A stretch of DNA of 53,865 bases from a virus (lineage: Duplodnaviria > Caudoviricetes), in IMG/VR virus record IMGVR_UViG_3300042398_001110, positions 1-53,865 of that record; one strand, given 5' to 3'. The notes beneath the pieces are model-generated. The model saw only the letters and a program-made list of their open reading frames with translations, ran no database searches and was not told where the DNA came from. The position numbers were made by a program, and so were the translations under genes. Of this stretch, positions 3,348 to 39,600 are shown in pieces. Position 1 is the stretch's first letter; every line of letters starts with the position of its first letter.

Positions 3348-3355
3348 ATAGTTAA

Positions 3356-6907: not shown

Positions 6908-6912
6908 AAAAA

Positions 6913-7482: not shown

Positions 7483-7486
7483 ATTA

Positions 7487-7819: not shown

Positions 7820-8843
7820 GTGAGAAAGTAGAAGGAAACCCTCCAAATGGTAGAGATCTGCCATCTTCACCTTTTTTTAAAACATAATCTTCAAATCTCA
7901 ATAAGCATCCTTTAAGTGTTTTTGAACATTGATCTTGTTTCCAAATATCAGTATTTAAATCTGGTTGTTTATTGAAAACGCTATCTTCTATACAAACGTA
8001 AAATAAATTCGGTTTATTATTAAAAGACGAAATAGATTCAGTTTTTAAATTTGTTGTGATATTTGGTATGAAATCCAAATAAACAGAATCCCCTTTATTA
8101 TAAGTAGATGTATCAGTCCATTTGCCAGAATAATTTATTGAAGAGAATCCATAATTTTCATTACTTAATGATGTTTTATAGTTAGCTAAAAATACTTTAT
8201 CATTTTCATCGGCAATTGCCATACCAACCATTTTTCCTATTAAATTTGCGGTGTTTGAAACTTGTGTTGTATTTGTAGTTACAGGTCCAGAATAATCCGC
8301 TGTATTACCATAATTACATCCATAGCATCTATATCCCCAAGAACAAGTATCATTTGTGACTTTTCTAGAAGGAATATTGATATTTTGAATATCTATTTTT
8401 GTGGCAAGCTCTAATTCAATAAATTCTTTATTTTCTGATTTTTTTAAATTAATTAAAAATTCATCATATGAAATATACGTTTTAAAGTTAGAAACTCCAA
8501 AAGGGTTTATTCCATCTGAAAAATTAGAGACATCCAAGTCTCTTGCTAATATTTTTTTTCTAATGAAACTTTTACCAATTAAGTCGCCTCTATCTTTTAA
8601 AACATAAGACATGTAATTATTTATGTTAGCAATTTTTAATGTTGGCTTTGGCTGTCTTCCATCCGAAGACGACTCTAAATTTGACAATTCACATGGTATA
8701 AATATATATTCTTGATTTTGAAAAGATATGTTTTTGGAAAAATTTTTAGATCCATGAAATCTTAAATAGCCCTCAAATGATTCTAATTGTATTTCAAAGA
8801 GATCTAAAATTACATAATTGTCTAATTTAAAAAACGTATTCAT
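7803..8843 (-). CDS. Minor tail protein, lambda gpL-like
   Basis: LDLFEI, DGRQPKPTLKIAN, CSWGYRCYGC, CSKTLKGCLLRF and LPFGGFP; Cys pattern typical of the gpL Fe-S site. Confidence 0.92.
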   Translation of the reverse strand: MNTFFKLDNYVILDLFEIQLESFEGYLRFHGSKNFSKNISFQNQEYIFIPCELSNLESSSDGRQPKPTLKIANINNYMSYVLKDRGDLIGKSFIRKKILARDLDVSNFSDGINPFGVSNFKTYISYDEFLINLKKSENKEFIELELATKIDIQNINIPSRKVTNDTCSWGYRCYGCNYGNTADYSGPVTTNTTQVSNTANLIGKMVGMAIADENDKVFLANYKTSLSNENYGFSSINYSGKWTDTSTYNKGDSVYLDFIPNITTNLKTESISSFNNKPNLFYVCIEDSVFNKQPDLNTDIWKQDQCSKTLKGCLLRFEDYVLKKGEDGRSLPFGGFPSTFSHDNKR

Positions 8844-8844
8844 A

Positions 8845-11800
8845 TTAAACTGTTCCTGCCACTGAAAAAATATTTGGTAATCTATAACTATATAAGTCAG
8901 AAGATTTTAAATTTAAATTACTAACACCATTCTCACCAGCAAATAAACTAAAATAATCATTCACAAGAAAAGAATAAGCTGTATTTAACTCTTGTTCACT
9001 TAATACTCTATTATAAAAACTTATATCAAAATAATTGATACCAATTGTTGTGCTTCTATTTATTAACTTTAATGTTGTTTGATTTAAATTATTAATCAAT
9101 AACGGTAATTCCGTCGCGCTTACTGTAGAAAAATTAACTTGATTTCTATTTATAAAATAAAAATATTTATTTTGCACTCTTCTTATTTGTAAAACGAATG
9201 GCTGATACAAACTTGCAGATGAAATTTTGTGAATAACTGTATTTGAGCCTGAAGTCGTTAAGTCTATAGTCGCGCCTCCAGAAGAACTGGAGATTGTAAA
9301 AGTATTTGCGGCTGGCACAGTTTTTACATAATAAATTTGTTTTGTATATGGAGTGGATATATCATAAATATTTATCGGCAAAGGCAAACTGTCTCCAACA
9401 AATCCAATCGTATCTCCAACTAATAGATTATGATTAGTAGTTGTAGTTATCACATTTGTAGTCGTATTCACACTACTTATCGACAACAACGAATATAACT
9501 GTTTAGATATTTGCTGGCTTTTTGCATTTGAACCCATAGAAATAGCAACGTCTTTTTTATTTTGCAAACATGCGTTTTTATAATTAAAAAGTAAATTCTC
9601 TTTAAGATAACGATTATAAATTAACGGATCATTTTCAAAGGTCTCAAATTGATCTTTTGTAATATTTTCAGTATTTGCTGTATTAAACCAATCAAATAAA
9701 GATGCGTAAAGATAAGAAAATTTACCATTCACAGAATCAAACGCTGTATATGCAAAATTATCGAAACTACACACAAAAAACAAATCAAAATCAACACAAC
9801 TAACATTTGCAGATCCAAAATTTAATTCTAAAAATTGACTATTTTTTAAATTAATAGTTTCGTAGCCTAAGCTTTGATAATTAGCATTATAAGTTCCACC
9901 TGATGTACTACTCAAAGTGTAAGTAGAAATAGTAGTATCACTAGCCCATGAAGTACCACTAGCTATACCGCTATTTTTAAATCTAAATACGGGAGTAGAT
10001 GGCAATACATTATTATATAAATTAAATTTCAAATCGGATTCTGAATATGTTTCCGCTATTTTTCCAGGCAATCTGTTGGTTCGAATTGTATTAATAGGAT
10101 AATAAAGAACATAGTCTGGAAAAGGTGTAACTACTGCGTATCCATGATTATCTAAAAAGACATATCTATTTTCTTCTCTATTAGTTATATAATTTGTTGA
10201 TTTTATAAATTTTGAGTCTTTATAAGAGTCAATAAGTAAAGTTGCACTACCCATTTCACCATATCCCGAAGGGTTAACGGATACAACGTACCTACCAATT
10301 TGACCAACTCCTTGAGTAGGTCCAAGAACTGCGTTTCCCGCTGTGCTGTAAAAACCAACCGTCCAACGCAAAAATTTTTTATTATTGATAGGATCTAAAT
10401 AGAAATTTTTTGGCATCGAGCCATTTATTCCAACAAAATAAGTACGAGAAATGTTTGCAACTAATTGATCATGAAATGTATGTTTATCTGCAAGAGTATT
10501 ATACGCATAAATAAGTCCTGCTTTACCTCCTCCACCACCAGACGCTATTGCAGATGAAAGATTGTTGTTTATATTAACTTTTTGAGGATTACTCAATTGA
10601 CTATATAAATTATATTTTATATCTTTTCTTTTACCAACGTCCTGTATTTCGCTTTCAATTTTTAAAATAATTGCTGGACCACCATTTGAAGAATCATTAT
10701 ATCCTGCTTGATTCTCAAACGCTAAAAAAGAAGGCTTAGGAATAGCCCATAGGATTACATATTGATTTGTATTTGGTGGATAATCTGTTCCGTTTTTATT
10801 GCCAAACGGCTCATTTATATTTGTTCCATTTCCCATTGCGCCTAAAATTTGAGTTGTGCTGGGAATATAAAAATTAACGAATGTTCCTCCGACTCCACTA
10901 AAATTTTGAAAAATCCCTTCTAAATTAATCGCTCCTTTAGATGTGTCAATAGATTGAAAAATGCTATTTTCTGGCAAATAAACGTTTATACCAGAATAAC
11001 CAGTAAAATTAGCACTCCCTAAATTAGCTTCTATTATTTTACTATATAAATCGTATGTAGACGTAAAAAAAGAATTGTCGGGAGTTATATGAAAATCAAA
11101 AGCTTGTTTTTCTATTTTAATATTTATTGGAGTTCCAGAATATCCAATAAAGACTTCACTTGAAACCGGATCTGATAAAGATTCTACTCCACTAGCATAA
11201 ATTGAAACTCCACTGTTATTGTTAGAATATGTATGTATTCTAGCGTAATAATCCGTTTCTCTTGCTAGTGCTGTAAAATCGTCCTGTGTTACTACATTTT
11301 TTATATCATCATCTCCAAATCCATAATACGTAGAAAACTTAGGGTTTTGATTTGTGTTTTCTGCTATTCTAATTTGTTTAGTGTACGCTACGGGTGACGA
11401 AAAAGAAGAATTTGTGGATATTTCTAAAGTGTATCCAGTAATAAAATAATTGTGTAAATTGTCTCCTGTTATACCTGTTGGAGGTTTCCAATAAAAATTA
11501 TAAGCTGGAGGATTAAAGTTGCTAATTACTCTAAAAGATCTTGGATTGCCTCCGGTAATGTTTAAAATTCTTTTACCTGTTATGTTTAAAGTTATATCTC
11601 CACTAGGATCTACGCTGCCATCTTCAATCGATGTAGATTGAATTGTCAAATCTGTAATTTCATCTCCTATAGAAGAAGTTATAGTTGGCCTATAAAAAAC
11701 ATCAAAAAGATCAAACGAATCTGGATTTACGACAAAAGAACTTTTAGAAATACTAAAATTTGTATCGTTTGAGTTTTCAACAGAGTAAGATACTTGAGCG

Positions 11801-17405: not shown

Positions 17406-20400
17406 TTATGAATTTCTTGCTCCAGCTAATGAACCGCCAAATTGTTTTTCTTTTCTAATTACTTCGCCAACAGCAGCATATATCTTATTATTCAAATTCT
17501 TGGACAACTCAACATCTTGTTGTTCGTAGCTTGTTGTATTGCTTCCCATCTTTAAAGATCCATCTCTTTGAACGCTTGTATTAAAGTTAAATGAATTATT
17601 TGCGCTCGTATTATTATTAACCGTGGAGTTGCTATTTCCAGCACTACTAATTGATGAACCACCGCTTTGCATACCAGTTCCGTATCTTTTCACCATTGGA
17701 GAATCGTATAGTCCGCCTTCCATATAACCGGGAATCGTATCAGAAAGACGAGAACCAATTAAGCCGCCTGTTTGTTTGCCTGCTTTTTTTGGAGCAAATG
17801 GATTCATAGAACCTCTTTGATAAAAAGGAAGTTGACCACTTTGTAAAGGACCAGAAAAAATAGATTTAAATCCAGTATTAGGCGTTCCTCCTATATATTG
17901 ACCTGTTGGGCTAAGTAAACCTTTATTCATTAAAGGTCTAATAGACATAGACTCTGCTTTAGTTAATTCAGCACCAGATGTTAATTTACCTGAAAGGGCT
18001 TGAGTTTTTGTAGCTTGCATATTTTGAGCCACATTAGAAATTCCTGCACCAATAGCTATTGTTGCAGCAGCAGCCACTAAACTACCAATCATTGCTGCTT
18101 TTTGTTGTTTGTCGGCTAGTTTTTTCGCTCTATCTTCTGCGGCTTTTTGTTTTGCAGCATCATTTAATTCATTATAATATGGATCGTTTTCTAATCCCAT
18201 TTGAGTCATATTATTTTCCATGCTAGAAATGTCATTAAATTCTTTACTGAATGCTCCACCACTAGCAAAACGAGGTGCAGCAGAGAAATTCAAGGTATCA
18301 AGAGCAGCAGGACCACCCATCGCCATTACCGCTCTTCTATTTAATACATATTCACCATTCTCAAGCATAGCTGGATATTTATCGCCAGTTCCCGTGCCTG
18401 ATATATACATACCAGATTGAGCGCGAATTATCCCGCCTTTTTGACTCGGAACTGGAATTGCACTTGCTGAACCGAAACCTTGCGCTAAACTAGGAGCAAA
18501 TGAACCCATAATTTGATAAATACCAGATCTCATCATCATAGTACTTATTTCATCAAGAAATTTACTTGCTATACCCGTTAAAGCTTGACCTAAATTATCT
18601 GATTCTTTAATTGCGGCTTTTATACCATCAACTAGACCATCAGCAAACATTTTTGGCAATTGTCTTCCTATAGTTCCAATCAACATTTCTCCTTCAGTAG
18701 CTAAATCTCTAAATCCAGCTTTAAATTGAAAAACAAAATCTCTTGATAATTCCATTGCCATAAGAGCTTCTTTAAATTTTTCAGCAGCAATATTTAAATC
18801 ATCAGCACTTTCCTTTTCAGTAAGAGCTATGTCTTTTCTAATATTACTTATTTTTTGTAAATAGTCTTTTTGTTTATCAGTTGCTTTTTGCATATCCAAT
18901 GTTCCAAATTGATCTTTTATAAAATTTTCTGTCTTTTTTAAATTTTCTTCTGGTTTTGATAAATCAAAAGATTTTGATAACGCTAGATAAGCGGTTTTTT
19001 GAGCGTCTGATAAATTATAATAATCTTGTATATTTGTCGTTAAAAGTGTTTTAGAAATGCCTAATTCTTTTGTTCTTTTTTCTGATTCAGCGTCTTGAAT
19101 ATCAAAGTCATATTGAGTTTGTAAACTACTTCTTTTTCCATATAAAGATTCATCAATCATCATTGTATTTGGCCGTCTCACTCCTCTTAAATTTTTTTGA
19201 AATTCATCTTGTCTAGATAAATCTTTAAAAGAGTAATCTAAATCATTAACAAAATCTTTTAATTGTTGATTTAAATTAGCCACCGCTTCAGCAGCATCCG
19301 TCAAACCTTGAATCTGTTTGTCTTGACTTGTCTGATATTCATCAAATTTGCTAACAGCAACAACAAAACCATCAGCCAAAGCAGTGCCTAATAAACTTCC
19401 AGAAGTTGCTGCTTCTTTTAATGTTGCTACAATTGATTCTAATTCAGTACCTTGTAATCCTCCTTGTTTTAACAATTCAGTTAAATCACCAGTTCTAAAC
19501 TGTCCAAGTCCAAATGAACTTTCAAGTTCACTAGAATAAACTCTTGAAATTTCCACGATAGCATTGCGATCTACTTTTGACATAGATTTGAAAAAATTTG
19601 GATTCTCTTTGTAAATCGTTTCTCTTGTTTTTTTATTTGCTAAATCAATTTTAGAAAGTTCTTTTTCTTTCACTCCTCCAATACCCAAAAATTGCATCAT
19701 ACTATTTACTCCTCCAGAAGCAAATTTCATAAATTTAGCAACCTGACCAGTTCCCCCCTCTTCTTTTATTTTAAGAAGACCTGCCGATTTTAAAGTTTCA
19801 AAAGAATATTTTTTCTGAACTAATATAGCATCATTTAATACTGAAGTAGCTTCTTTTTGTTTTAAAGAGTATTCTTGAACTACCGCAGATAAAGAGTTAA
19901 TATCAGTACCTGCTAATTTTATTTTATTGGCAAAATCTGCATCTTTAATTGATGAAAGCTCCGCTCTAAGAGAAACAAGATTTTTTTTAATATCTTTTGG
20001 AGAAGTAGATTTACTTATTTCTTCTTGAATTACAAGGTATCTCTCAGCGCTTGAAATATTTTCAATAATTTTATTTTTTTGTTCTTCTTGTCTTTCTTTT
20101 AACTCTTCAACGCTTAAACTAGCGCTATCTAAAGCTGATTTAAGAGCGATCAAACCTCCAACCGCACCTCCAATTAATGCTCCAGGTAAACCAGCAGCTT
20201 GTGCGCCAATGCCTACACCTGTTGTTACAGCGCTTAAACCCGTACTTGAAAACGATTGCGCCATTCTTTCATTCGAAGACATTTCACTTCTTTTCTTATC
20301 TCCGAAAACAGATTGTTCAACTAATCCAGCAATTGTAGGACCAGCAACAGATATTGCAGTTCCAGCTCGCGAAAGACCTCTAGAAAACCTTGAAAATTTT

Positions 20401-23400
20401 GAATTACGAGAGCTATCAACGGTATTAGCAAGACTAGCTTTTAACTCAGGATTTTTATCACCTGTTGACTTAGAGGAGTTTTGACTTGTAAACTTATTTC
20501 TTATATTACTTATTGCATCAATCCCAGAGCTTGATATTGTTTGAGTAAATTGATTCCCAACTTTTGACATGCTTGATACTATTTTTTTAGCCGTTGATTC
20601 TGCAATTCTTTCTATTTTTTGTGGATCAAAATTTCGATTCATCAAACTAAGACTCAATAAAATATTTTCTTTAACTGTTCCAATCTTGAAACTTAATTTT
20701 TTACCAAAATCATCAACAGATTTAGATATTAAACTAGAAAATCTAACCACATCAAAACCTTTATTATTTTGTGGCGCTGCAAAATTTGGAACATATCCTT
20801 TATTCATCAATCCAGCATCTTTCTGCCCTCTCATAGAATCACTCAAAGCGTTTCCTAAACCACCATGATCGGCAATTGCGGAACTAAATGTTGGCTGACT
20901 CTTGTTTCTAATGTGCGGGAAAGGCTTAGTATCGAATACGGCTTTTTCTCCGCTCATGCTTTCTTCTAAGCCCATTACTGCTTGTTTATACGCAAAGTTA
21001 GGAATAAACCCTGAAGCATGAGAATTAACTAATTCAATCAATGCCATATCTAATTTTGCGGCATTGTATTTGTGACCAGCTATTCCGTTTTCAAAATCAG
21101 ACATTGCAATCTCCTTGCCATTGATTAAAAGCTTAGAACTCTTAGCCATTTTTGCCCAAGATAATTGAGGAAAAATAGCTTTTGCAGGAATAGATTTGCC
21201 GCTCGCGTAATCTGCCAAAGCTTGTTCTTGTGGTAATAATACAGATTTAATAGTACTACCGGAACCAATTTTTTCAGCAATGCTTCCGTATAATTGAGAG
21301 CCTAATCCTTGACCTCTAAATTTTTTACCGACTTCAACGCCTTCGATTTCATAATTATTTTTGCCAGTTTTTATGGCTGATATATTTCCTTTTCCTTTTA
21401 TAAAAGAAGATATCATTGAAGCAAAATTAGGAATAAAACCTCCAGAAGCTTCTGCTCTATAAAAACTAGGATTATTAACATATGAAGTTAATAATTCATT
21501 TGTTTTTTGTGAAAGTACTTTAAGTAATTCAGGACTATTTTTAGCAATCTCATCATAATTTGTTGCTGCTAAAGGTAAAAACTCTTTACCTAAAGCGCTC
21601 ATATATTGTAAATGCTGTGGATTTCCAGGTTCGTTAAAAACACCCAATAACTCTCTTAATCTAGCAGCAGCTTTTGGATTTTTTGTAGTAAAATTATTAT
21701 ATTTTTTAGTAATAATTCCTGTTGCACTGCCTCCAGTTTGTGAATCTTTAGGACCACCTTTAATTTCTATACCAACTAAATCAAGTAAATCTGTAGGATT
21801 AGTATTAACTAATTCCATGAAAGAATCGAAAGATGATTCGCCTTGTATAGTATCTGGTTCAAGAGATTGACCTAAAATTAAAGATTTTATTTTAGATTTA
21901 TTAGCTTGTAAACCTATAGAAGAACGAACAAATTTCTCATATATTGGACCAAAAACATTTCCGTCACCAGCTTTTTTATTATAATCTGTTTTATTAGTTC
22001 TGAATTGTGTGGATCTAAAAGTATCTGCTGCACCTGCCCCTGCAATATTTAATGTTGGCTGTTTTGCGTCGAATGATGGATTAGCGTATTTTTTAAACCA
22101 AGGTATTCTCAACATGCTTATAGGAGGAGCAAAGTTTGGAATAAAACCGTTTGATGAAATACCTAAACTAGCCAATCTTGTTTCTTTTGTGCCAGGTTTT
22201 GCTGAATAAACTTGATTTCTTTTTTGTATGCCCCAAATGCTAGATATATATTCTGGCATACCTGGAGTTTCATCAGAAGCCGTCATTAATCCAAGTAAAC
22301 TTGGATCAATTATTTTTTGTTGTATTTTTTGACGCAATAATTCACCAAACTGAGTTAATCTAGACTCTTTAACATCTTTTAATCTAGCTTCTTTATTCAA
22401 AAACATTTTTTGCAAAACGCCTTTTTTCTGTTCTGGAGCCACTCTACCATAAGCTGAATCACCAGTAGTTCTTACTAATGTTCTATCAAAATCCAAATAC
22501 GTCATTTGACGTTTTTGTTGTCTATCTAATATATTTTGTATTGCTTTGTCTGGAATTGGAAGAGATGCAATTCCTTTTGGAAAGTCATGTTTATTGCGAG
22601 CATTATCATCTATTAGCGGGGAAAAATTAGGTATAAATCCACCATATGATGTTGTTCTTCCTATTGTTTGATAAATTGGTAATGTCCCAAAATCTACATC
22701 ATTTTGTTTATCCCAAGTATTTGCATCCATTTTAGAAACATTAATTCTAATCGATTTCGCAATTAAATCGTTTATTCTTGCAGCGGTATTTTTCGCTTCA
22801 ATGCCTTTATACATTGTTGAACCTAAAATTTTAGGAACTAAATCTGCTGGATCAGTATTACCAGGGCTTATTTGATATGCACCAGATACATTTTCATGTT
22901 TTAACACTAATTGTTCATAAAAATCTCCAATAAAATTGCTATAATCTCCATTTAAAGACTTTTTAAATTCTTCGGATGTTTTATAAAGTTTTTTATTTCT
23001 AATAGATTTGTATTTTGTATTACTAGCTGCAACAGATTCATCTTCAGACGCCCTTTTTTTGAATTTAAAATCTTCACCTGTTAATCCTAATTTTTGAGAA
23101 GTTCTCAGATAAGCTGCTTCAACAGAAGCTTCATCCATGCCTAATTTAGTTATATTTAGATCAGTTGTCCATTTCGTATCACCAGAAATTAAACCATCCC
23201 AAGCAATTTTAGTAGCTTCATCGACTTTATTTTTTTCTAAATATTTTATTACTTTTAAATTTCCTGAGAGTTTATCATAAATTTTATTACGTTCGCCATG
23301 ATAATGAATTATCCTATTAGTTTTTGGATCTGTGACGTTATCATTGTAATAACCAGAATCTACTAAATTTCTTTTTAAATCTAAATCTTCATCAGCCTTC

Positions 23401-25406
23401 AAATTGATTGGATTATAATCAGTTAGCCTTACAGTATAACTCTCTCTTGTTTTATTGGGTTTTTTCCCTTTAATAACTTCACCTTTATCATCTATAAATT
23501 GTTTGTTAGCAAAATTAGGAATAAATCCATCATTCATGTACGGATCAACACCTGTTCTACTTATAGCATTTTGTCTATGTGCGCGGCCAGCTTTTGATCC
23601 AGCAGGAGGATTAATAAAAGGTTGAGCAAAACCGGGGACGTATTTAACATCTTCCGCAGTATTCATTACTCCACCAACAGGAGATTTGACTACTTTACCG
23701 GGAGCATAACCACCAGCTTGTGCGCCAACTGCTTCAGCCATTCTTGTTGCATTAGGAATATAACCTCCTGCGCGAGTGACCTGCAAACCACCAGATCCTT
23801 TTACTCGCACACCTTGACCGGCTAATTGAGTGGCTAATTGTTTTGCAAGAGTTGACTGTATTTGATATTCTGCTGTTTGTTGTCTAGCTAATTGAAGCAG
23901 CAACTGAGCTTGTGCAGCTTGATTGCCCATAGAGCCAGCAAGAGCTTGCGATACCGGCCCTTGTTGCTGCATGATTTGCAAAATAGATTGTTCAATGTTT
24001 TTTCTATTTTGAGTTTCTGTCGTGATACCAGCAATCTGAGGCAAAGCCTGAGCGAGATAAGTGAAAGAGTTTTGTATTAACTTGAAAAGCGTAAAGAAAG
24101 CGGCAATAGCACCGGGACCAGCTATTATATTACGAATACCTTTTAATAAACCATTAGCGAAAGTAGAACCAACTCCTTCTCCTTCAAGAATTTCGTTCAT
24201 GCTTTCGACAAGTGATTTCAATTGTTCTGTACCATATCTAGCCAATGGTTCAAACGTTACTTTACCAATGTTATTTGCTAGTTGTTGTGTAGAAGTAGCT
24301 GTTTGCTTTAATAAAGCGTCAAGAGTTTGATTTAGTTTTGCAGTAGCTACTTCAGCCTCATTTGTTGCTGATGCGCCTCTTTGTAAAGCTCCAGCATACA
24401 CGCCTTGAGATTTATTTAAATCGCCAACAATAGCTTTAAGAATGTTAACCTGATAAACACCCGCGACTTGTTCAGATAACTGCGCTCTTTGAGCGTCTCC
24501 TAAATTTTTATAAGCACCTGCAAAATTTTGTAGAACAGTAACTGCTGGTAAAGTGTTTCCTTGTACATCTCTTACAGCTATATTGAAAGCTTCTAATTGG
24601 TCAAGAGTTTCTGTACGTTGTAAACGAGTAAAAATTGTTTTTAATGCGTTACCAATAACTGCGCCGCCTCTTGCTGTGCTTTGTTGAGCGGCTGTAACCA
24701 ATGCATTTAATTGATCCAAGCTAACTCCCGCTTCTTGCGCCGCTTGACCTGTACGAGATAACGCTTCAGCTAAGTCTCCTGCGCCAACTGCGAAATCTTG
24801 TTCGACAGCTACAAGTTTATTTAATATTTGAGTTGTTGTTACTCCAGTTGCGGCAAAACCGTTTATAGTAGAAGTCAAAGCATCAACAGAATTTGCAGTG
24901 CTAATTCCAGCGACTCTTGCTAAAGTTAATGCGTCTTTTGTTCTTATTAAAACTTCTTCAGCTTTTAAACCTTGACGAGAGAATTCAAGAGCAGCTTTAG
25001 ACGCGTCATCAAATGTAGAAGCCGTTTGTTTACCAACGCTAAATAAATCTGTACTAAATTTTTGTAATTGACCAGTAGTTAATCCGAATACACGATTAAT
25101 ATCAGCAAGATTCTTTTCGACATCGATAGTAACATTAGCTAGTTCTTTAAAACTACGAATGACACCACCAAGAACAGCGGTTGAAGCTCCGAATGCAATA
25201 ACGCGAGCATTAGAAGCGGCAAGAGCCGCCTCAAAATCCTTAACATCACCAGTCATTCTTCCGAGCGGCTGAGAGAAAGCTCGTTGATTAACGCTTAAAT
25301 TAACCTGATTGTTCTGAGCGAATTTTTGATTGTACGCTTGAACACCAGCTTGAATAGAAGCTGTTAATGCTGCTTGATTGGCGGCGACATTGATTTGAAC
25401 GGCCAT
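17406..25406 (-). CDS. Tape measure protein (TP901-like N-terminus) with an internal array of enzyme-like cargo cassettes
   Basis: EKNLADINRVFG...AALEFSRQG...IGNALKTIFTRL TMP core; hydrophobic Gly/Ala stretches; C-terminal GTGTGDKYPAMLENGEYVL motif; follows two chaperone-like genes. Confidence 0.95.
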   Translation of the reverse strand: MAVQINVAANQAALTASIQAGVQAYNQKFAQNNQVNLSVNQRAFSQPLGRMTGDVKDFEAALAASNARVIAFGASTAVLGGVIRSFKELANVTIDVEKNLADINRVFGLTTGQLQKFSTDLFSVGKQTASTFDDASKAALEFSRQGLKAEEVLIRTKDALTLARVAGISTANSVDALTSTINGFAATGVTTTQILNKLVAVEQDFAVGAGDLAEALSRTGQAAQEAGVSLDQLNALVTAAQQSTARGGAVIGNALKTIFTRLQRTETLDQLEAFNIAVRDVQGNTLPAVTVLQNFAGAYKNLGDAQRAQLSEQVAGVYQVNILKAIVGDLNKSQGVYAGALQRGASATNEAEVATAKLNQTLDALLKQTATSTQQLANNIGKVTFEPLARYGTEQLKSLVESMNEILEGEGVGSTFANGLLKGIRNIIAGPGAIAAFFTLFKLIQNSFTYLAQALPQIAGITTETQNRKNIEQSILQIMQQQGPVSQALAGSMGNQAAQAQLLLQLARQQTAEYQIQSTLAKQLATQLAGQGVRVKGSGGLQVTRAGGYIPNATRMAEAVGAQAGGYAPGKVVKSPVGGVMNTAEDVKYVPGFAQPFINPPAGSKAGRAHRQNAISRTGVDPYMNDGFIPNFANKQFIDDKGEVIKGKKPNKTRESYTVRLTDYNPINLKADEDLDLKRNLVDSGYYNDNVTDPKTNRIIHYHGERNKIYDKLSGNLKVIKYLEKNKVDEATKIAWDGLISGDTKWTTDLNITKLGMDEASVEAAYLRTSQKLGLTGEDFKFKKRASEDESVAASNTKYKSIRNKKLYKTSEEFKKSLNGDYSNFIGDFYEQLVLKHENVSGAYQISPGNTDPADLVPKILGSTMYKGIEAKNTAARINDLIAKSIRINVSKMDANTWDKQNDVDFGTLPIYQTIGRTTSYGGFIPNFSPLIDDNARNKHDFPKGIASLPIPDKAIQNILDRQQKRQMTYLDFDRTLVRTTGDSAYGRVAPEQKKGVLQKMFLNKEARLKDVKESRLTQFGELLRQKIQQKIIDPSLLGLMTASDETPGMPEYISSIWGIQKRNQVYSAKPGTKETRLASLGISSNGFIPNFAPPISMLRIPWFKKYANPSFDAKQPTLNIAGAGAADTFRSTQFRTNKTDYNKKAGDGNVFGPIYEKFVRSSIGLQANKSKIKSLILGQSLEPDTIQGESSFDSFMELVNTNPTDLLDLVGIEIKGGPKDSQTGGSATGIITKKYNNFTTKNPKAAARLRELLGVFNEPGNPQHLQYMSALGKEFLPLAATNYDEIAKNSPELLKVLSQKTNELLTSYVNNPSFYRAEASGGFIPNFASMISSFIKGKGNISAIKTGKNNYEIEGVEVGKKFRGQGLGSQLYGSIAEKIGSGSTIKSVLLPQEQALADYASGKSIPAKAIFPQLSWAKMAKSSKLLINGKEIAMSDFENGIAGHKYNAAKLDMALIELVNSHASGFIPNFAYKQAVMGLEESMSGEKAVFDTKPFPHIRNKSQPTFSSAIADHGGLGNALSDSMRGQKDAGLMNKGYVPNFAAPQNNKGFDVVRFSSLISKSVDDFGKKLSFKIGTVKENILLSLSLMNRNFDPQKIERIAESTAKKIVSSMSKVGNQFTQTISSSGIDAISNIRNKFTSQNSSKSTGDKNPELKASLANTVDSSRNSKFSRFSRGLSRAGTAISVAGPTIAGLVEQSVFGDKKRSEMSSNERMAQSFSSTGLSAVTTGVGIGAQAAGLPGALIGGAVGGLIALKSALDSASLSVEELKERQEEQKNKIIENISSAERYLVIQEEISKSTSPKDIKKNLVSLRAELSSIKDADFANKIKLAGTDINSLSAVVQEYSLKQKEATSVLNDAILVQKKYSFETLKSAGLLKIKEEGGTGQVAKFMKFASGGVNSMMQFLGIGGVKEKELSKIDLANKKTRETIYKENPNFFKSMSKVDRNAIVEISRVYSSELESSFGLGQFRTGDLTELLKQGGLQGTELESIVATLKEAATSGSLLGTALADGFVVAVSKFDEYQTSQDKQIQGLTDAAEAVANLNQQLKDFVNDLDYSFKDLSRQDEFQKNLRGVRRPNTMMIDESLYGKRSSLQTQYDFDIQDAESEKRTKELGISKTLLTTNIQDYYNLSDAQKTAYLALSKSFDLSKPEENLKKTENFIKDQFGTLDMQKATDKQKDYLQKISNIRKDIALTEKESADDLNIAAEKFKEALMAMELSRDFVFQFKAGFRDLATEGEMLIGTIGRQLPKMFADGLVDGIKAAIKESDNLGQALTGIASKFLDEISTMMMRSGIYQIMGSFAPSLAQGFGSASAIPVPSQKGGIIRAQSGMYISGTGTGDKYPAMLENGEYVLNRRAVMAMGGPAALDTLNFSAAPRFASGGAFSKEFNDISSMENNMTQMGLENDPYYNELNDAAKQKAAEDRAKKLADKQQKAAMIGSLVAAAATIAIGAGISNVAQNMQATKTQALSGKLTSGAELTKAESMSIRPLMNKGLLSPTGQYIGGTPNTGFKSIFSGPLQSGQLPFYQRGSMNPFAPKKAGKQTGGLIGSRLSDTIPGYMEGGLYDSPMVKRYGTGMQSGGSSISSAGNSNSTVNNNTSANNSFNFNTSVQRDGSLKMGSNTTSYEQQDVELSKNLNNKIYAAVGEVIRKEKQFGGSLAGARNS
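20778..23768 (-). repeat. Seven dispersed copies of the peptide motif G(F/Y)(I/V)PN(F) within the TMP
   Basis: Copies at about 23748-23768, 23508-23531, 22620-22643, 22128-22151, 21420-21449, 20991-21017 and 20778-20801. Confidence 0.95.
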
Positions 25407-25434: not shown

Positions 25435-26430
25435 TTATCCGAATATTTTCATCATGTCGTCCATGCTCAATGATCCGCCTTTCTTTTTAGCTTCATCTGC
25501 TAAAGATAAAGTCTTTTGACCTTTAGCCTTCAATCCTATATATTCAAGATCTTCTGATGTTGCACCAACTATTGAACTAGCTTGATTTTCTTTGTTGTTC
25601 TTTTTTTCAATTGTTTTTTTGGCGTTTTCATTGGCGTTCACATAATCAATGATTTTATCAGGATCGTCTTTAATATCTTGAGGCATTTTATCATTTTGCT
25701 GAAAAACATTCTTAAAAAATCGAGCATAAATAAGTAATTTTACTTGATTGTAAGTCAGTTCGCATACACATTTACCAAAGAATTCAGTAGGATTTTCAGC
25801 AAATGGCATATACAAATTGAAAAAATCTTGCAAAATTAGATATTGAATTGTGTTGTCGTTTATGTTCTTATATACTTCTGAGTATTGTTTTATGATGCAA
25901 GTGAGAGTTTCCGAATCAATATTATCGAACTCATCTTCTTCAAAAGCCTCTTCACTTAACTTTTTATCTTTATATAAACATTTCAATATATAATAATCAT
26001 TAACTCTTTCTTCGGCATAACTTTCGGCGGTTCTTTGAAAGAAAGATGCTCTTGTATTTTTTAAATCGTTTAAACGTTTTTGCGCCGATTCAATATCATT
26101 ATTAACTCTTGTTATTTCTGATTTTAGATATAATGATTTTTTTTCTTTATTGAAGTTCTCTATTAAATCTTGTTCTTGTGTTATTAAAGATTCTTGTTTT
26201 TTTGACCATTGTTTTTCCTCAACCAATCGTTCTAGTGTTTCACTATTTGTAGGAACGCCGCGTTTTTTAGCTTGATCAAAATAGACATCATAAATTTGAT
26301 CAATATCGACTTGATCTTCCAAAGACAAATGCTTTAAATAAAAAAGATTCTCTAAAACTTTAATCTCAGAGAATCCATTTTTTATATCCCTAAAAGCTTT
26401 TTTGTATTTACTCTGTTGGGACTGTTCCAT
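25435..26430 (-). CDS. Probable tail assembly chaperone (gpT-like position)
   Basis: Charged helical protein directly upstream of the TMP; positional inference only. Confidence 0.5.
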   Translation of the reverse strand: MEQSQQSKYKKAFRDIKNGFSEIKVLENLFYLKHLSLEDQVDIDQIYDVYFDQAKKRGVPTNSETLERLVEEKQWSKKQESLITQEQDLIENFNKEKKSLYLKSEITRVNNDIESAQKRLNDLKNTRASFFQRTAESYAEERVNDYYILKCLYKDKKLSEEAFEEDEFDNIDSETLTCIIKQYSEVYKNINDNTIQYLILQDFFNLYMPFAENPTEFFGKCVCELTYNQVKLLIYARFFKNVFQQNDKMPQDIKDDPDKIIDYVNANENAKKTIEKKNNKENQASSIVGATSEDLEYIGLKAKGQKTLSLADEAKKKGGSLSMDDMMKIFG

Positions 26431-27187
26431 CTATTTCTCCAATGATTCTATCGAATTCTTCTTTTTCTGTATTGCTGGTAAAGAACCAATAGCTAATAAC
26501 ACTAGCTAGTTTACTATAGCATTTTTCATAAATTTCATTCTTGTTCTCTTCATAATCGAACATTACAGATTCTTTAATTTCAAATGTCTTGCCGGGAAAC
26601 AACCATTCATATTCAGGACTCTTTTTACTATTATCCTTAAATTGAGTAAGGCTAAGTACATACCAAAGAATAGCTCTATTTTGAGCTTTAATATCAGCAG
26701 TATGATTAAACAAAGTCATATAACTCGTTTCTTTTTCAATAAGAGTCTTACGACGTTGAAGAATTTCAGAAGTTACTTTTTCAATCTTTAGCTTATAATC
26801 TTCATCGCGTTCCGATTCTGGCTTTAGATTAAGAATAGTTAGCCTGCTTTGTAGATCTCCAATTTCTCCAGCGGCAGAAACCATGATTTTCGCATCATTG
26901 TCGCTGATTAAACCACCAGTGTCGCTATATTTATTTAGCAACATGGCCTTTGTTAAAATTCCATTTCGGATACATCGGCTCATTTCAATACTGAATTCCA
27001 TATCAGCTTCTTGCATTTGTTTTCTATTCGGTTGAAGAATATGAATTTCTATTGGAATTTGTTTCTTAACTTTTTCCTTGTAAGTACGAACGACCTGTTC
27101 GCCTTGTTCATTTGTAACCGTTTCAGTCTTATCCTCTTCGACTTCGGCTGTTTTAAAAATGTTGAAACTATACAGTGACTTTGACAT
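26408..27187 (-). CDS. Probable tail assembly chaperone (gpG-like position)
   Basis: Acidic/helical protein overlapping the next gene by 23 nt; positional inference only. Confidence 0.5.
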   Translation of the reverse strand: MSKSLYSFNIFKTAEVEEDKTETVTNEQGEQVVRTYKEKVKKQIPIEIHILQPNRKQMQEADMEFSIEMSRCIRNGILTKAMLLNKYSDTGGLISDNDAKIMVSAAGEIGDLQSRLTILNLKPESERDEDYKLKIEKVTSEILQRRKTLIEKETSYMTLFNHTADIKAQNRAILWYVLSLTQFKDNSKKSPEYEWLFPGKTFEIKESVMFDYEENKNEIYEKCYSKLASVISYWFFTSNTEKEEFDRIIGEIDGTVPTE

Positions 27188-33605: not shown

Positions 33606-34564
33606 CGGATATTTACGCAGACATTATTTTATTTGATAGCATAGGTTCTCCATACGATGGAAATACCATGCACAAATGTGGAATGGGCGGCAGCGAGTTT
33701 CAAGCTATTTTACTTCTTGAAGAGTTATCTAAAGAAGGATACAAAGTTATATGCCTAAACAATTCTAATAAAGAATCTTTTGTAAATGGAGTGTTGTATG
33801 CGCCAAACAAGTTGGTTGATAGTTATAAATTCAAGTGCAAGAATTTAATAATCCATAGGTATAGCGAAATTCCTAAAATCGCTCATAAAAAAGCATTCAT
33901 GTGGGCAACCGATTTGAATGGCGTTCATAATCTAAAATTCTATAAGCTATTTGAAGAAAAGAAACTAACTTTAATTACACTCAGTAATTTTCATAACGAT
34001 TTGTTTCCAAAGTCTTGGGACAAGCATGTAATTTATTTCATGATACCTGATTGGGTATATGAGTATTCTATACCAGAGAACAAGAAAGATTATATATACG
34101 CCAGTAGTTTGATGAAAGGATATTCATCCACATTACCATTATGGAAATATCTAAAAAATGAAAAACTACTTAGTAAAACTGATGTATTGAATGTTTGTTT
34201 ACCGGGATATGACAATCCGACCCAAGACATAAGCGAAAAAGATTATGGAATCAATTATCTTGGAACTTTGAAGTTCAAAGAAGTTATAGAACTGATGGCG
34301 AAATGTCGCGGCATGTTTTATGTCAATACTATGCCCGAGACTTTTGGCATAAGCGTTGTACTAGCCGACATATTAAAGACAACCCCATTTGTTTATGGTA
34401 TAAACGGTCTAGGAAGTTTATCTGAATTAATAAATAATAAAAATCTTACTACCGACATGCAAGAATACATCAATATGTTTAAAACTTATTCAAGCTTAAA
34501 TGAAACGCCGCGAAACTTCCGCCCAAAGATGGTTATTAAATGGTGGAAGAAAGTATTGATTTAA
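33602..34564 (+). CDS. GT-B fold glycosyltransferase (GT4-like)
   Basis: GMGGSE N-terminal loop, YASS..KG, PETFGIS motifs. Confidence 0.8.
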   Translation: MTDIYADIILFDSIGSPYDGNTMHKCGMGGSEFQAILLLEELSKEGYKVICLNNSNKESFVNGVLYAPNKLVDSYKFKCKNLIIHRYSEIPKIAHKKAFMWATDLNGVHNLKFYKLFEEKKLTLITLSNFHNDLFPKSWDKHVIYFMIPDWVYEYSIPENKKDYIYASSLMKGYSSTLPLWKYLKNEKLLSKTDVLNVCLPGYDNPTQDISEKDYGINYLGTLKFKEVIELMAKCRGMFYVNTMPETFGISVVLADILKTTPFVYGINGLGSLSELINNKNLTTDMQEYINMFKTYSSLNETPRNFRPKMVIKWWKKVLI

Positions 34565-35190
34565 GGTTTAATAAATAATAGACTTTCGGCAATCAATTCG
34601 TTCTTATCGTTCATAACTGTTTCGACTGGCATAATATAATCAAATTTTAGATCAAACATTTTGTTTAATATTTGATCTTTATTGCAGCCGCCTTCATTAT
34701 AATTATTAAAAGACACTTCGGCGATAACAACTTTAGCGTTTTTAAAAGTATTTATACCGCCTTCTATAATATCTAATTCACTACCTTGAGTGTCTATTTT
34801 TATAAGATCGTAAATATCTTTCACACAATCATCTAATCTATAAATCGGCAACTCTTCGACTATCAAATTTTGTTCGTTATATGTTTGCGAGTTTTCTTTG
34901 TATATAGAATTACCAGAACAAATTGGACTCCATTTTGTTTTATAAAATTTAGTTGTACCGTTGATTTTACCAAGCAATTTTATTTGATAATCGTAAAGTT
35001 GTTTCTGGTATAACTTTTCGCACTCAGCGTTTCCTTCGAATAATAATATGTTTGCGACAGGCCAGATTTGGCGCATAATGTCTGCCGTTTGGCAGACACT
35101 TGCACCGATATCTAATATATTTTTAGGATAAAATCCTTTGTCTCTGAGTAAGAAACAAATTTGAGAATAATAGTCATAAGAATAACCCAT
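34561..35190 (-). CDS. FkbM-family SAM-dependent methyltransferase
   Basis: ILDIGA, FEGN, RLDD, LIKIDTQGSELDIIEG motifs. Confidence 0.9.
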   Translation of the reverse strand: MGYSYDYYSQICFLLRDKGFYPKNILDIGASVCQTADIMRQIWPVANILLFEGNAECEKLYQKQLYDYQIKLLGKINGTTKFYKTKWSPICSGNSIYKENSQTYNEQNLIVEELPIYRLDDCVKDIYDLIKIDTQGSELDIIEGGINTFKNAKVVIAEVSFNNYNEGGCNKDQILNKMFDLKFDYIMPVETVMNDKNELIAESLLFIKP

Positions 35191-35210: not shown

Positions 35211-35813
35211 TTAAGCATTAAAGCCTGGTATTGGATGAAATCCAGAAACGCCGTCAAAGCTTGGCATTGGAGGAAATGGAGGTATAGTTATATTTGGAGC
35301 AGATGTCGGAATGGTGGGCCACACCGCTTGAGTAATATCTGGGATATCTAACATTGTACGCAACTGTTGTCTGAAATTTTTAAAATCAAGTTTCGCGGCA
35401 TCAGACATTGGCGAATCAGACGACTGAGTAAAATCAGTTATCACAAGATATCTATCTCTTATTGTTCTTATGCTTTGTTTTAATTGTTGGGTGCGGATTT
35501 CTATTTCTGAAGTATCTGCGTTTTGTATTGAATAAGAAATTGTGCAAGTTTTTTCATTAATATTGAGTGTTTTGGTTTCTATTAATTTTTGATCAATGTT
35601 TATTGATGGTTTTTCATTAAAGATAGCGACCCAAAACGCTAAATTTGGACTACCTTGCCAAGTTAAATCAGATAACAATTCAGGTGAATTTTGTTCTAAA
35701 AAATTAAATCCACTTGTTGGTCCAAATGATTCCGGCAAATAATTTGGGCCTTGAATTATAGAGTAATTCTGATTATCGATTTTGGTGACTAAAAAATATT
35801 GTTTGTTGTTCAT
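35211..35813 (-). CDS. Tail fibre assembly chaperone
   Basis: IRTIRDRYL..TDFTQ..DSP...FRQQLR....WP motif; downstream of the fibre genes. Confidence 0.85.
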   Translation of the reverse strand: MNNKQYFLVTKIDNQNYSIIQGPNYLPESFGPTSGFNFLEQNSPELLSDLTWQGSPNLAFWVAIFNEKPSINIDQKLIETKTLNINEKTCTISYSIQNADTSEIEIRTQQLKQSIRTIRDRYLVITDFTQSSDSPMSDAAKLDFKNFRQQLRTMLDIPDITQAVWPTIPTSAPNITIPPFPPMPSFDGVSGFHPIPGFNA

Positions 35814-36652: not shown

Positions 36653-39600
36653 TTATAAACTTGTGCTAACTAGCCCTTGAGCAACAACAGTTCCTATCCA
36701 AACACCTGTTGTTCCCTGATAAGAGGTTAACATATATACATCTGCATAACCAGATACTCCAGTTATTGTTGGGGTGATACCATTCGCCCATAACACATTA
36801 GTCCATGTAATAGAAGCTGTGCCGCCATATTTTATAACTAACATTATTGTATTTACAGAAGGATTAGGCGCTCTATAATTATATGTAAAACTAGATATTG
36901 TTGTTGAAGCGGCTAAAGTTAAAACATGAATACCAGCAGCGGCGACATCAATTGTGCATCCTACTGTTCCGCTCAATGATTGAGATGCGCTTTTTTGAAC
37001 GTATGAGTTTGCTCTTACGACGTTTAAAATAGACGTACCTGCTGGATCAGTATAATAACCAGTATCATTACTATCGTAGAATATTTGCGCTCTTACTGAT
37101 GAACCATCAAATAATACATAATCTCCACCAACAACTCTAACTCTCCAACTACCACTTTGATTCAATAAACCAACGTCATTAGCAGTATCTGCATAAAAAT
37201 ATCCACGAACAGTTCCTGCATGACCGCCAGTTCTTAATCTTATGCCTTGTGCGCTTGAAGAGCTTGCGACATTCCAATAACTGACATCATCAGAATAAAA
37301 ATGCTGACCAGTTGCTTCATTATATAAACCATTACCACTCGTAGTACTTCTAAACCAATTTGCAGTATAATATTGTGCTGCTGTTATATTACCGGCTGCG
37401 GTAATAGCGTTTAAGTTGCTTGTGCTGGCAGGATCACAATAATATCCAGTATTATCCCAATCATAAAAAAGTGTTCCGCGAACATCGCCTGGAGTCCTAA
37501 GACTTCCTCCTCCCCACGCGCCTTTGAACACACCATTTTCTAGTATTAATAATCCATGACTTGCTAGATTACCTGCCGCTCCACCAGCATTTTGATGAGA
37601 CCAAGCAATACCATACAAATTACCAGTAGTGGTTCCATCAGCGGCTAATTTATAAGAATCACCCATCGCAAATACGCCTTGATATCTGCTTGCAGAATAA
37701 ACACCAACTACAGTATTTCCATAATTATCATCAATATAAAAATTACCGTTTGCTCTTGTTGCTTTTGTGGCTAAAGTTGTAGTGGCGGAATTACCAGTAC
37801 AAGAAGCGGAGCTTCCAGTCACGCTTATTCCCCATGAACCACTTGCGCCAGTTCCTGTTAATGTTGGGGCGTATGAGTTGTAGTTGCCAGTATGAATCAG
37901 TGATATCCAACTTCTCCAAGTTCCAGATTCAAGCCTTCGCATTCTGATGTCGTCACTCCAGAACGAATATGCAAGCTGGTAGCCATAGCCATCTGGAGAT
38001 CCCCAACTATTACCGATACAACTCATCCAGTTCCACCAGTCTGTTGTCGGCATTCCTGTCGTATTAGTTCCGAAATAAAATCCGGACGGGTCTGTGAGGC
38101 TGTTTGCGGTCCCGTTCTGACGAGTGCTTGAGCGCCCACGCGATCCCTCTCCTTGAACAAAGTTAGCCGCAGCGTTTCCACCAAGCTGGGTCGAGTTAGA
38201 AGCTGTAGCGGCATTACCAGTACAAGAAGCGGAGCTTCCACCAGCATTACCTGTGATACTTCCGGTAATTGTATTGATTACAGTTAAACCAAGTAAATTA
38301 CTTGTGCTTGCGGGATCTGTGTAGTATACAGTATTATCATTATCATAATATCTTTGAGCATATATATCACCTGATTGATTGTTACCATAACTAACTAATT
38401 TAAACCATGAACCAAAGCTGCCACCACTACATCTTCTCCACCAAGGACCACTATCAGTATTATATTGAGCAACCATCTGCCATCCATATGCAGTGCCACC
38501 AGTTGTACCAAGACTATTAGTGGTATAATGAAGCGCATTAAATCCATGAATATGCGTAAGACCTGAAGGATAATTTGTTCCATCCCAAATATCAATGAAG
38601 CCAGAACCACCATGAAAAGTTTCATTCGCTCCATATCCATTATGACCAAATGAACCTACATGATAGTTAGCATCACTTGAATAATCGACTCTTCTACTGT
38701 AATTATTTTTTGCACTTCCACCGATACTAACTTTGAAATCAGTTAATCCTAAATATCTTAAATAATTATCAGTTGAACAAGTTATTCTTGTCAATCTGTT
38801 TGCGAATCCAGAATCTCCCGAATCAGTATTAATCCATCCAGCTTGAATATACCCACTACCGTCAGTTCGTACAACTTTGTTGACTTCGTTATTTCTGCCG
38901 GTGTGAACATTAAGTCCATATGCTGTTGCAGCATTACCACCAATATTTAAACCTGATACAGTTGTATTAGAAGTTGTGGTTATTACTGTTCCAGTTAAAG
39001 CTCCTTGATTTGTATCCGTCATTACTACGTTGCCCCAAGCGGACCAAGTAATATTGTCTGTTTTATTTCTTACTCTCCAACCACTTGACGGTATGTTATA
39101 ATAATATTCGTGTTGAACTGTTCCAGTAGAACCACCGGGATTAAAACTTAATAAATTTCTGCTGTAACCAGTGTAAGTTATACTTCTAAAACCATTATCA
39201 GTATATGTATCAAGATTAGCTTCAGTTCCGCTAGTCAATCCACGCATAAAATTGGTATTTCCTTCGCCACCAAATTGTGTTGAATTAGAAGCTGTAGCGG
39301 CATTACCAGTACAAGAAGCAGAACTTCCAGAAGTGTTTTGATTACCTGCCGTATTCACGCCGGGAAGATTAATAGAAGCGGAACCATTGAAACTAACGCC
39401 ACCTATAGTTCTTGCTGTTTGCAAGATAGTTGCTGTTCCTGCGTTACCTGAAATTGAACCAGTAATTGTATTGGTTACAGTTAAACCTAGTAAGTTACTT
39501 GTGCTTGCTGGATCTGTGTAATAAGCTGTATTATTACTATCGTAGAATAATGGCGCTCTGAAAGATCCTTCTGATTCCGTATAAGTAACTTCTCCAAAAT

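Follow-up and report, generated by a model that had tools for sequence, protein, structure and literature searches.

A tape measure protein with a motif-delimited array of exchangeable, enzyme-like modules in a metagenomic virus

A motif-delimited array inside the tape measure protein

We analyzed a 53,865-nucleotide stretch of viral DNA (IMG/VR record IMGVR_UViG_3300042398_001110, positions 1 to 53,865; hereafter the window) that encodes a 2666-residue tape measure protein (TMP) carrying, in its middle, an array of segments separated by a short repeated peptide. The gene is an open reading frame (ORF) free of internal stops (Table 1). Residues 123-316 of its product match PF10145 (TP901 type; E = 6.3e-27, 95.2 bits against a cut-off of 33.2), and 11 PHROG TMP families match the N-terminal part (approximately residues 35-490; best E = 3.7e-46). 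It is the longest tail gene and lies directly upstream of tail-tip genes, with downstream ORFs on the same strand matching phrog_14, phrog_18 (minor tail), phrog_32 (tail assembly), and phrog_31 (central fibre J). Because these tail-tip families are of the lambda type, the gene order indicates that the virus is a siphophage, and its host is probably Gram-negative. The G+C content of the window is approximately 27-39%, and the TMP contains no cysteine. An identical protein is recorded once more, on a single 67 kb metagenome contig (P0002).

The pattern G[FY][IV]PN occurs seven times in the TMP, compared with a mean of 0.016 occurrences in 2000 shuffles of the same protein. Six copies read G(F/Y)(I/V)PNF, and the first, GGYIPNA, lacks the final Phe. 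The copies bound six segments, referred to here as S0 to S5 or as cassettes, within positions 20778-23768 (residues 547-1543). A first-pass annotation, made from the sequence alone, had described this array, and its span, its seven motif copies, and the length of the protein match our measurements exactly; the four large segments, put at about 288, 156, 226, and 134 residues, measure 289, 157, 229, and 136. The codons of the motif vary synonymously among the seven copies (GGA/GGT/GGG, ATT/ATA, CCT/CCA, AAT/AAC, and GCT/GCA/GCG), and selection therefore acts on the peptide and not only on the DNA. Within the window the motif is confined to the TMP ORF, and across 84 related loci (1.375 Mb) every copy lies inside a TMP ORF.

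The same annotation had held that the array does not resemble helical TMP sequence, as both composition and predicted structure bear out. Proline accounts for 5.1% of the array versus 1.1% and 2.3% of the flanks, aromatic residues account for 8.7% versus 5.1% and 6.7%, and all six segments carry a net basic charge. AlphaFold2, run on two multi-cassette stretches (17 and 29 alignment rows), predicted a mixed alpha/beta secondary structure and not an all-helical one. Hydrophobicity profiles place a hydrophobic stretch at residues 426-445 of the N-terminal part, and hydrophobic, glycine-rich stretches at residues 1735-1762 and 2435-2461 of the C-terminal part. A Pfam scan of the whole protein found no peptidase family (E up to 1), no cell-wall hydrolase family, and no MuF or other head-protein family, and family-profile searches gave no match for S0 or S5. 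By eye, S0, S5, and the C-terminus of the TMP (approximately residues 2290-2330; GGIIRAQ...AMLENGEYVL) share a pattern resembling G-G...[ML]-x-E-x-G-E-x-V.

Table 1. Features of the TMP gene, given as positions in the window. Residue (aa) numbers are those of the TMP; nucleotide (nt) numbers in the last column are those of its coding sequence (CDS).
Feature	Position	Strand	Evidence or remark
Tape measure protein (TMP) gene, 2666 aa	17406..25406	(-)	ORF without internal stop; PF10145; PHROG TMP families
Conserved N-terminal TMP part, aa 1-547	23766..25406	(-)	91-100% identical in ~60 relatives
Motif copy 1, GGYIPNA, aa 548-553, degenerate	23748..23765	(-)	No breakpoint there
S0, 72 aa, conserved entry segment, family F02	23529..23744	(-)	86-100% identical in relatives
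Motif copy 2, GFIPNF, aa 627-632, first exchange junction	23511..23528	(-)	Similarity to 41 loci ends at CDS nt 1896-1938
S1, 289 aa, first-slot cassette, family F09	22641..23507	(-)	PD-(D/E)xK-like core in C-terminal half
Motif copy 3, GFIPNF, aa 923-928, exchange junction	22623..22640	(-)	Similarity to 6 loci begins at nt 2766
S2, 157 aa, optional cassette, family F14, HAD-like	22149..22619	(-)	Invariant DFDxTLV, TASDxTPG; weak fold matches
Motif copy 4, GFIPNF, aa 1087-1092, exchange junction	22131..22148	(-)	Breakpoints at nt 3256, 3278-3279
S3, 229 aa, core cassette, family F01, PD-(D/E)xK-like	21441..22127	(-)	Invariant E, D, K residues
Motif copy 5, GFIPNF, aa 1323-1328, exchange junction	21423..21440	(-)	Breakpoints at nt 3960-3997
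S4, 136 aa, accessory cassette, family F03, minimal GNAT-like	21012..21419	(-)	PF00583 motif A; YjdJ match
Motif copy 6, GFIPNF, aa 1466-1471, exchange junction	20994..21011	(-)	Similarity to 52 loci begins at nt 4389-4399
S5, 64 aa, conserved exit segment, family F00	20799..20990	(-)	76-98% identical in relatives
Motif copy 7, GYVPNF, aa 1537-1542, last junction	20781..20798	(-)	Similarity to 49 loci ends at nt 4625-4630
C-terminal TMP part, aa 1544-2666	17409..20777	(-)	Translation, comparison with relatives, hydrophobicity

Exchange of cassettes at the motif

A search with residues 541-1550 returned 255 TMP matches, 120 of which were listed; after dropping the identical protein, ours and the remaining 119 made up a set of 120 TMPs. 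The listed relatives are all TMP-sized and all metagenomic, and nearly all match PF10145. Every one of the 120 TMPs contains the motif, with the first full copy usually near residue 627 and the last inter-motif stretch usually 71-75 residues long. We collected 646 motif instances with a pattern that fixed the Gly and the Pro and restricted three further positions, one of them to Asn or Ser. Asn was present in 99% of these instances, followed by Phe in 94% and then by Ala in 75%, both at positions left free in the pattern. Small residues precede the Gly and positions further out are variable, yielding the consensus small-small-G-[FY]-[IV]-P-N-F-A.

Cutting the 120 TMPs at the motif produced 525 cassettes, which fall into 40 families (blastp E 1e-5, 60% coverage) and combine into 80 architectures. 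Their order is fixed: S0 is followed by a first-slot cassette, an optional F14 cassette, a core cassette, zero to four accessory cassettes, and finally S5. An array has 3-7 modules after the motif near residue 627. The first slot is filled by family F04, F05, F07, F09, F13, F16, F19, F20, F24, F25, or F32. The core cassette belongs to F01 in 102 of the 120 TMPs and to F01 or F08 in 117. Accessory families comprise F03, F06, F10, F11, F12, F15, F17, F18, F21, F22, F23, and others, with F03 (our S4) occurring in 26 TMPs; F00 (our S5) stands last in 104. The TMP in the window has the architecture F02-F09-F14-F01-F03-F00. Several first-slot families and the core are distant relatives of one another, given the hhalign links F07-F09 (95%), F01-F08 (93%), F16-F19 (95.5%), F08-F09 (80%), F07-F19 (80%), and F08-F25 (74%).

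We also scanned IMG/VR with the seed GFIPNFA/QPFINPP; of the 571 matching stretches, 128 proved to be relatives, and 78 loci were retained. A profile of the core, compared with 1.84 billion representatives, gave 33 matches, all of them TMPs or motif-bearing fragments, which argues for lineage-specific domains and against recent captures from a general pool. The array had no tblastn match in 50,697 phage records; among these records the N-terminal part of the TMP matched only distant TMPs below 60% identity, and no cultured relative was found. A scan of genome collections for relatives returned two contigs only, both from metagenome-assembled genomes, labelled Gammaproteobacteria and Proteobacteria. 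For standalone homologues of S3 and S2, a word-based near-length search returned only one short-contig fragment each. One more divergent TMP, at positions 3300-10010 of a 104,736 bp IMG/VR contig (L064), has 11 motif copies, with a spacing that alternates 241/153/241/151 and one stretch of 928 residues. The alternation suggests a duplicated cassette pair, and most of the cassettes in this protein match none of the 40 families.

In close relatives, cassettes between the conserved N-terminus and S5 can be absent or only 20-45% identical to ours. In TMPs that match ours at 91-100% identity over the first 626 residues and at 76-98% over S5, S1 and S2 are absent or replaced, and S3 is approximately 95-100%, 40-45%, or 25-30% identical. 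S4 is present or absent in relatives with 91-100% identical N-termini, in all combinations with the other cassettes. Thus, as the first-pass annotation had anticipated, the number and identity of cassettes vary among close relatives while the flanks stay constant, and the motif search of metagenomic TMPs that it proposed yields at least 120 proteins that keep the motif.

We mapped where similarity begins and ends by aligning our coding sequence to 80 loci with blastn (four duplicates of the same contigs having been dropped) and recording the ends of high-scoring segment pairs within nucleotides 1600-4700. There were 172 such ends, which cannot be counted as independent events, given the shared history of many loci; 142 lie within 6 nucleotides and 156 within 15 nucleotides of a motif, where random placement would give 10.9%. 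Every motif except the degenerate copy at residue 548 is used as a breakpoint (six of seven), and the reading frame is kept in every relative. We conclude from these alignments that the codons of the motif are points of module exchange among relatives, and the modular array and its exchangeability are firmly shown. The earlier idea of exchangeable enzymes therefore stands with respect to the swaps at motifs. The cassettes are not, however, free draws from a general effector pool, because they follow a fixed grammar with two obligatory modules and because the core has no homologue outside TMPs.

Enzyme-like cassettes and neighbouring genes

The clearest enzyme match comes from relatives. Family F05, which is not in this window, fills the first slot in 21 of the 120 TMPs, and its profile matches a staphylococcal nuclease (SNase; PDB thermonuclease) with an E value of 1.9e-10 and 43.9 bits over 120 aligned residues (query 8-127 against SNase 13-140). 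The alignment shows no variation at the residues that match the SNase catalytic positions (DGDT, RL, DAxE, and R); a single F05 representative had no Pfam match at E 0.1. By this profile match, F05 is clearly a staphylococcal nuclease domain. In one relative (P0012), F05 replaces our S1 and S2, with the N-terminus 93% and S3 95% identical to ours, and we consider this displacement to be the strongest single piece of evidence. Because an SNase domain occupies the first slot in these 21 TMPs, enzyme content is real for at least part of the family.

For S1 and S3 the indications come from conserved residues. The 28 F01/F08 sequences range from 14% to 92% identity with S3 (14-21% for the F08 rows), and they share no invariant columns other than E64, D101, K123, and K142 of S3 (residues 1157, 1194, 1216, and 1235 of the TMP), with an acidic residue two positions before K123 ([ED]xK). 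In ten F09/F07 sequences, the ten invariant columns include E198, D222, E237, K239, and K251 of S1 (residues 831, 855, 870, 872, and 884). The AlphaFold2 model of S1 has a helix at 279-295, strands at 304-306, 316-318, and 329-332, a helix at 338-350, and a strand at 364-373, with a predicted local distance difference test score (pLDDT) of 59-87; these five residues sit on helix, strand, strand, strand, and helix, in that order. We take the order E..D..(D/E)xK and this topology to be the pattern of PD-(D/E)xK nucleases. Structural comparison of the S1 range with VIA gave Z scores of 3.8-4.3 to PspGI, Cfr10I, Bse634I, Ecl18kI, and FAN1, scores that the tool rates as common, and the S3 model (pLDDT ~40-60) gave generic alpha/beta fold matches only. 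Searching Pfam with each member of the F01/F08 (28) and F09/F07 alignments returned nothing significant, with sub-threshold matches to SduA_C (E 0.12) and Tox-REase-9 (E 0.19) in one of the 28 F01/F08 members each. In Protein Atlas, S1 had nothing above 0.85 and S3 lay near unnamed viral clusters (0.93); R.HinP1I (0.90, the nearest Pfam-labelled cluster to S3) and Mrr_cat (0.82) are leads only. We therefore describe S1 and S3 as PD-(D/E)xK-like at the level of motifs, and the model of S1 as like these nucleases in predicted topology only. First-slot and core families fitted a permissive PD-(D/E)xK regular expression more often (0.50-1.00) than their shuffles did (0.10-0.43), but the 78-residue family F17 fits it as well, and we rejected it as evidence because it is too loose. 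With two unrelated nuclease-type folds sharing the first slot, the job of that slot would be nucleic-acid chemistry.

Other cassettes resemble different enzymes. In S2, the sequence DFDxTLV, which corresponds to HAD motif I (DxDx(T/V)), is invariant in 11 F14 members, as is TASD, a possible motif II, and a Lys is conserved. The top ten Foldseek rows for S2 are all AphA or class C acid phosphatases, although weak (E 0.02-0.34, probability up to 0.97), and VIA gave Z 5.2 with a root-mean-square deviation of 5.4 over 137 aligned residues for a model with pLDDT 26-79. S2 matched TIGR01488 below cut-off (E 0.037), and the F14 profile found nothing in the PDB. Together these results give moderate support for a HAD-like S2. 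S4 searched alone matches PF00583 (23.0 bits against a cut-off of 20.7) over motif A only, falling below cut-off (18.2) when the whole TMP is searched, and it contains the acetyl-CoA-binding motif A (Q/RxxGxG/A) as FRGQGLG. The best PDB match of its family profile is YjdJ, a 93-residue minimal GNAT (E 0.0061), and other weak matches are mostly GNATs, making S4 a borderline to moderate candidate for a minimal GNAT. The accessory family F27 carries the Walker A motif GPAGSGKTT (L031:6744-7265 and L073:9509-10018) and weakly resembles P-loop NTPases (PhoH, AAA_23; E 0.018-0.04), with no match reaching the cut-off. A by-eye resemblance of F18 to ADP-ribosyltransferases (R...SxS...E) was dropped, as neither the PDB nor Pfam supported it.

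The first-pass annotation had labelled S1 and S3 as PD-(D/E)xK nucleases, S2 as a HAD phosphatase, and S4 as a GNAT acetyltransferase. The S4 label survives as borderline and the S2 label through motif I and weak HAD folds, but S1 and S3 have no significant match. Its suggested check with AlphaFold and Foldseek, carried out on multi-cassette models, recovered the weak HAD folds of S2 and was otherwise of low confidence and uninformative for S3-S5.

Several other genes in the window are large or lie in suggestive positions. Three very large ORFs on the (-) strand flank the tail module: 43377-52697 (3106 residues, with collagen triple-helix repeats and a C-terminal Peptidase_S74, or endosialidase chaperone, domain), 36653-43354 (2233 residues, with no Pfam match), and 3-3347 (at least 1115 residues, with collagen repeats). 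All three probably encode long fibres. Just upstream of the TMP gene, the ORFs at 25435-26430 (-) and 26408-27187 (-), of 331 and 259 residues, overlap by 23 nucleotides in different frames and occupy the usual place of tail assembly chaperones; neither has a PHROG match, and no obvious slippery heptamer was seen at the overlap. Between the fibre genes and a + strand gene block, an FkbM-type methyltransferase (PF05050, E 2e-11) adjoins a tail assembly chaperone-domain protein (PF16778, E 8e-07), the gene pair lying at 34561-35190 (-) and 35211-35813 (-).

Possible roles of the array and comparison with known systems

We propose, with confidence and doubt about evenly balanced, that this TMP belongs to a siphophage lineage in which the middle of the protein carries a modular array of non-helical, nuclease- and enzyme-like domains that leave the tail at infection. 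The two obligatory modules would be nucleic-acid enzymes or binders, and the accessory modules (here the HAD-like S2 and the minimal-GNAT-like S4) would be enzymes that modify small substrates or proteins. TMPs are known to leave the tail at infection. During lambda injection, the TMP is reported to be the phage protein robustly labelled by TurboID-ManZ, and TMPs reach the inner membrane (PMC13190303). On these grounds, the modules of the array would travel out with the TMP and work at the inner membrane or in the cytoplasm. Inside the tail lumen the array would be compact or unfolded, since by our estimate three copies of a folded 25-32 kDa domain would not fit a lumen of ~4 nm. At infection it would exit via the tail tip along with the rest of the TMP, and the modules might then refold at the inner membrane or in the cytoplasm and act before or during DNA entry. 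The motif would most likely be recognized as a linear element, whether it is processed to release the modules or bound by a tail assembly factor that docks there, and as a side effect would supply ~20 nucleotides of shared sequence for in-frame recombination. A more specific version, which we find doubtful, makes GFIPNF(A) a processing site, perhaps autocatalytic at the Asn, that releases two nucleases and variable modifiers ahead of the DNA, the payload being swapped in frame. Autocatalytic cleavage at Asn occurs in several non-enveloped virus penetration proteins. The first-pass interpretation, which saw the tail lumen as a magazine of exchangeable host-takeover or anti-defence enzymes, is partly supported, whereas the observation behind it is confirmed.

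A number of results weigh against our proposal. S1 and S3 have no significant Pfam, NCBIfam, or PDB sequence-family match, 20 representatives of other cassette families have no significant Pfam match, and four cassette family profiles (F18, F23, F06, and F10) gave nothing in the PDB. In S2, no HAD motif IV acidic pair was found by eye in the F14 alignment, and S4 is far shorter than a standard GNAT, with ~22 residues before motif A. The AlphaFold2 models have mean pLDDT values of only 53.4 and 48.0, and because the model is poor, the fold searches with S3-S5 were uninformative: Foldseek returned unrelated rows at a probability of 0.16 or less, and the best VIA match (Z 6.0) was generic alpha/beta. 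The folded cassettes are too large for the tail lumen, by an estimate that does not derive from a structure. The confinement of the core to TMPs fits a lineage-specific function in structure or translocation no less than it fits an effector. Finally, the first ~700 residues of the helical part after the array (residues 1544-2250) vary as much as the array itself. Where relatives agree with ours over the N-terminal 626 residues (91-100% identity), this region is 28-55% identical or unmatched, and few relatives keep it (P0021, 89%; P0022, 79%). Because the helical part is equally variable, the variability may reflect pressure on the whole TMP, for example from TMP-binding defences.

These last points lead to the alternative that we take most seriously, though we still consider it unlikely: the modules could be parts of the genome-injection machinery and not host-directed effectors, residing after ejection in the periplasm or at the inner membrane. 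The modules would use nuclease-fold domains to hold or process the end of the phage DNA and would engage host membrane proteins, and their turnover would follow from host range and from the evasion of TMP-recognizing defences or exclusion proteins. Obligatory first-slot and core modules in fixed positions resemble machinery more than optional cargo, the core cassette is confined to TMPs, the helical part varies equally, and staphylococcal nuclease is by nature a secreted enzyme. In addition, TMP regions are reported to set which inner-membrane protein is used and to be bound by the SNIPE defence, with escape mutations falling in TMPs (PMC13190303). Against this alternative, the accessory GNAT-like, HAD-like, and Walker A cassettes would use cytoplasmic cofactors (acetyl-CoA, NTPs), and the gain and loss of 0-4 accessory cassettes between near-identical phages is unlike a core machine part.

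It is improbable, in our view, that the TMP gene encodes a polyprotein whose cassettes are cut out at the motif in the producing cell, by a protease or autocatalytically at the invariant Asn during tail assembly, to serve there as late enzymes that are absent from virions. Polyprotein cleavage sites typically show such strict conservation of a 6-7 residue peptide between unrelated domains, the TMPs of lambda and T5 are known to be processed, and excision would solve how folded domains fit in the lumen. The junctions at residues 627 and 923 have very low pLDDT (26-38) and are probably exposed, which fits an exposed linear motif, although the low overall confidence of the model weakens this point. 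However, no protease domain was found in the TMP by the Pfam scan, neither the window nor the 84 related loci carry the motif in any ORF besides that of the TMP, and excising the middle would leave the N- and C-terminal halves of the TMP unconnected. Nor does the length of the array correlate with that of the remaining TMP sequence (r = 0.10, 92 proteins).

We judge it similarly improbable that the cassettes are catalytically dead remnants of captured domains, retained only as spacers, assembly elements, or tail-length modulators. The low AlphaFold2 confidence, the lack of a significant family match for most cassettes, the missing motif IV of S2, and the truncation of S4 relative to standard GNATs would all agree with such decay. 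Yet the invariant residues of F01/F08 are exactly the E, D, and K of the PD-(D/E)xK type, at identities down to 14%, and the SNase catalytic positions are invariant in F05; such residues would be lost first without catalytic selection. That the variety is instead an artefact of metagenome assembly is barely credible: the motif DNA is a short repeat at which chimeric contigs could be joined, and all relatives come from metagenome assemblies, but the repeat is only ~18-21 nucleotides with synonymous differences, below the k-mer length that assemblers usually use, independent sources contain the same architectures (35 contigs for P0088 and 23 member sequences for P0040), and the reading frame is intact throughout.

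If the cassettes are delivered as we propose, siphophages would gain a second route, besides head-packaged proteins, for bringing in enzymes before phage gene expression, and simple in-frame recombination at a junction of 6-7 residues would be enough to exchange the payload. Were the tail lumen indeed a magazine, it would represent a new effector-delivery route for tailed phages and a natural plug-in scaffold for phage protein delivery. The family is a testable system in any case, with ~40 cassette families (most without a known relative), a clear nuclease slot, and natural swap variants on near-identical backbones. It also bears on the co-evolution of TMPs with TMP-sensing defences (PMC13190303).

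We found no description of such a TMP cassette array in the full text of open-access papers and preprints, in line with the first-pass annotation, which was aware of no such description for a TMP. The TMPs of mycobacteriophage TM4 and T5 (pb2) contain embedded cell-wall hydrolase motifs, and thus likewise hold an enzyme-like domain that is tail-borne to the cell envelope at infection. Each has one peptidoglycan-directed motif, whereas ours has 3-7 nuclease-, HAD-, and GNAT-like modules that are separated by a junction peptide and exchanged. MuF polymorphic toxins, T4 Alt and internal proteins, P22 ejection proteins, and the N4 virion RNA polymerase are head-packaged and act before phage transcription. 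They resemble the array in being virion-borne proteins delivered with the genome, but ours lies in a TMP in which no MuF or head-protein family was found.

Other parallels exist among bacterial contractile injection systems and mosaic phage proteins. In actinobacterial contractile injection systems, Tme is a TMP-related carrier with an EndA-type endonuclease (PMC11126660), and Sle1 is a TMP-related effector with exchangeable functional domains (PMC13277306). Both share with our protein a TMP-like carrier with hydrophobic segments and an enzyme domain, as well as domains that differ between relatives and can be swapped. As described there, they belong to bacterial contractile systems and have one C-terminal functional domain and no junction motif, while ours is a siphophage TMP beside lambda-like tail-tip genes with an internal multi-module array. 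Polyvalent proteins of phages and conjugative elements are large mosaics with GNAT and nuclease domains; according to the proposal of Iyer et al. 2017 (PMC5512222), they accompany the DNA into the host, and their domains come apart once deployed. Like the array, they combine several conflict-type enzyme domains in one large mosaic protein; in that paper, whose main text lacks the word 'tape', they are head- or DNA-associated and carry MPTase peptidase domains, in contrast to a tail ruler with a fixed grammar, a junction motif, and no peptidase domain found. Lastly, a survey of phage protein mosaicism flagged TMPs as often mosaic by sequence, but its authors reported no confirmed genuine recent case among them (Smug et al. 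2023, PMC10684548). Here, recent TMP exchanges are resolved to a few nucleotides, and the family thus provides a resolved case of recent domain shuffling within TMPs.

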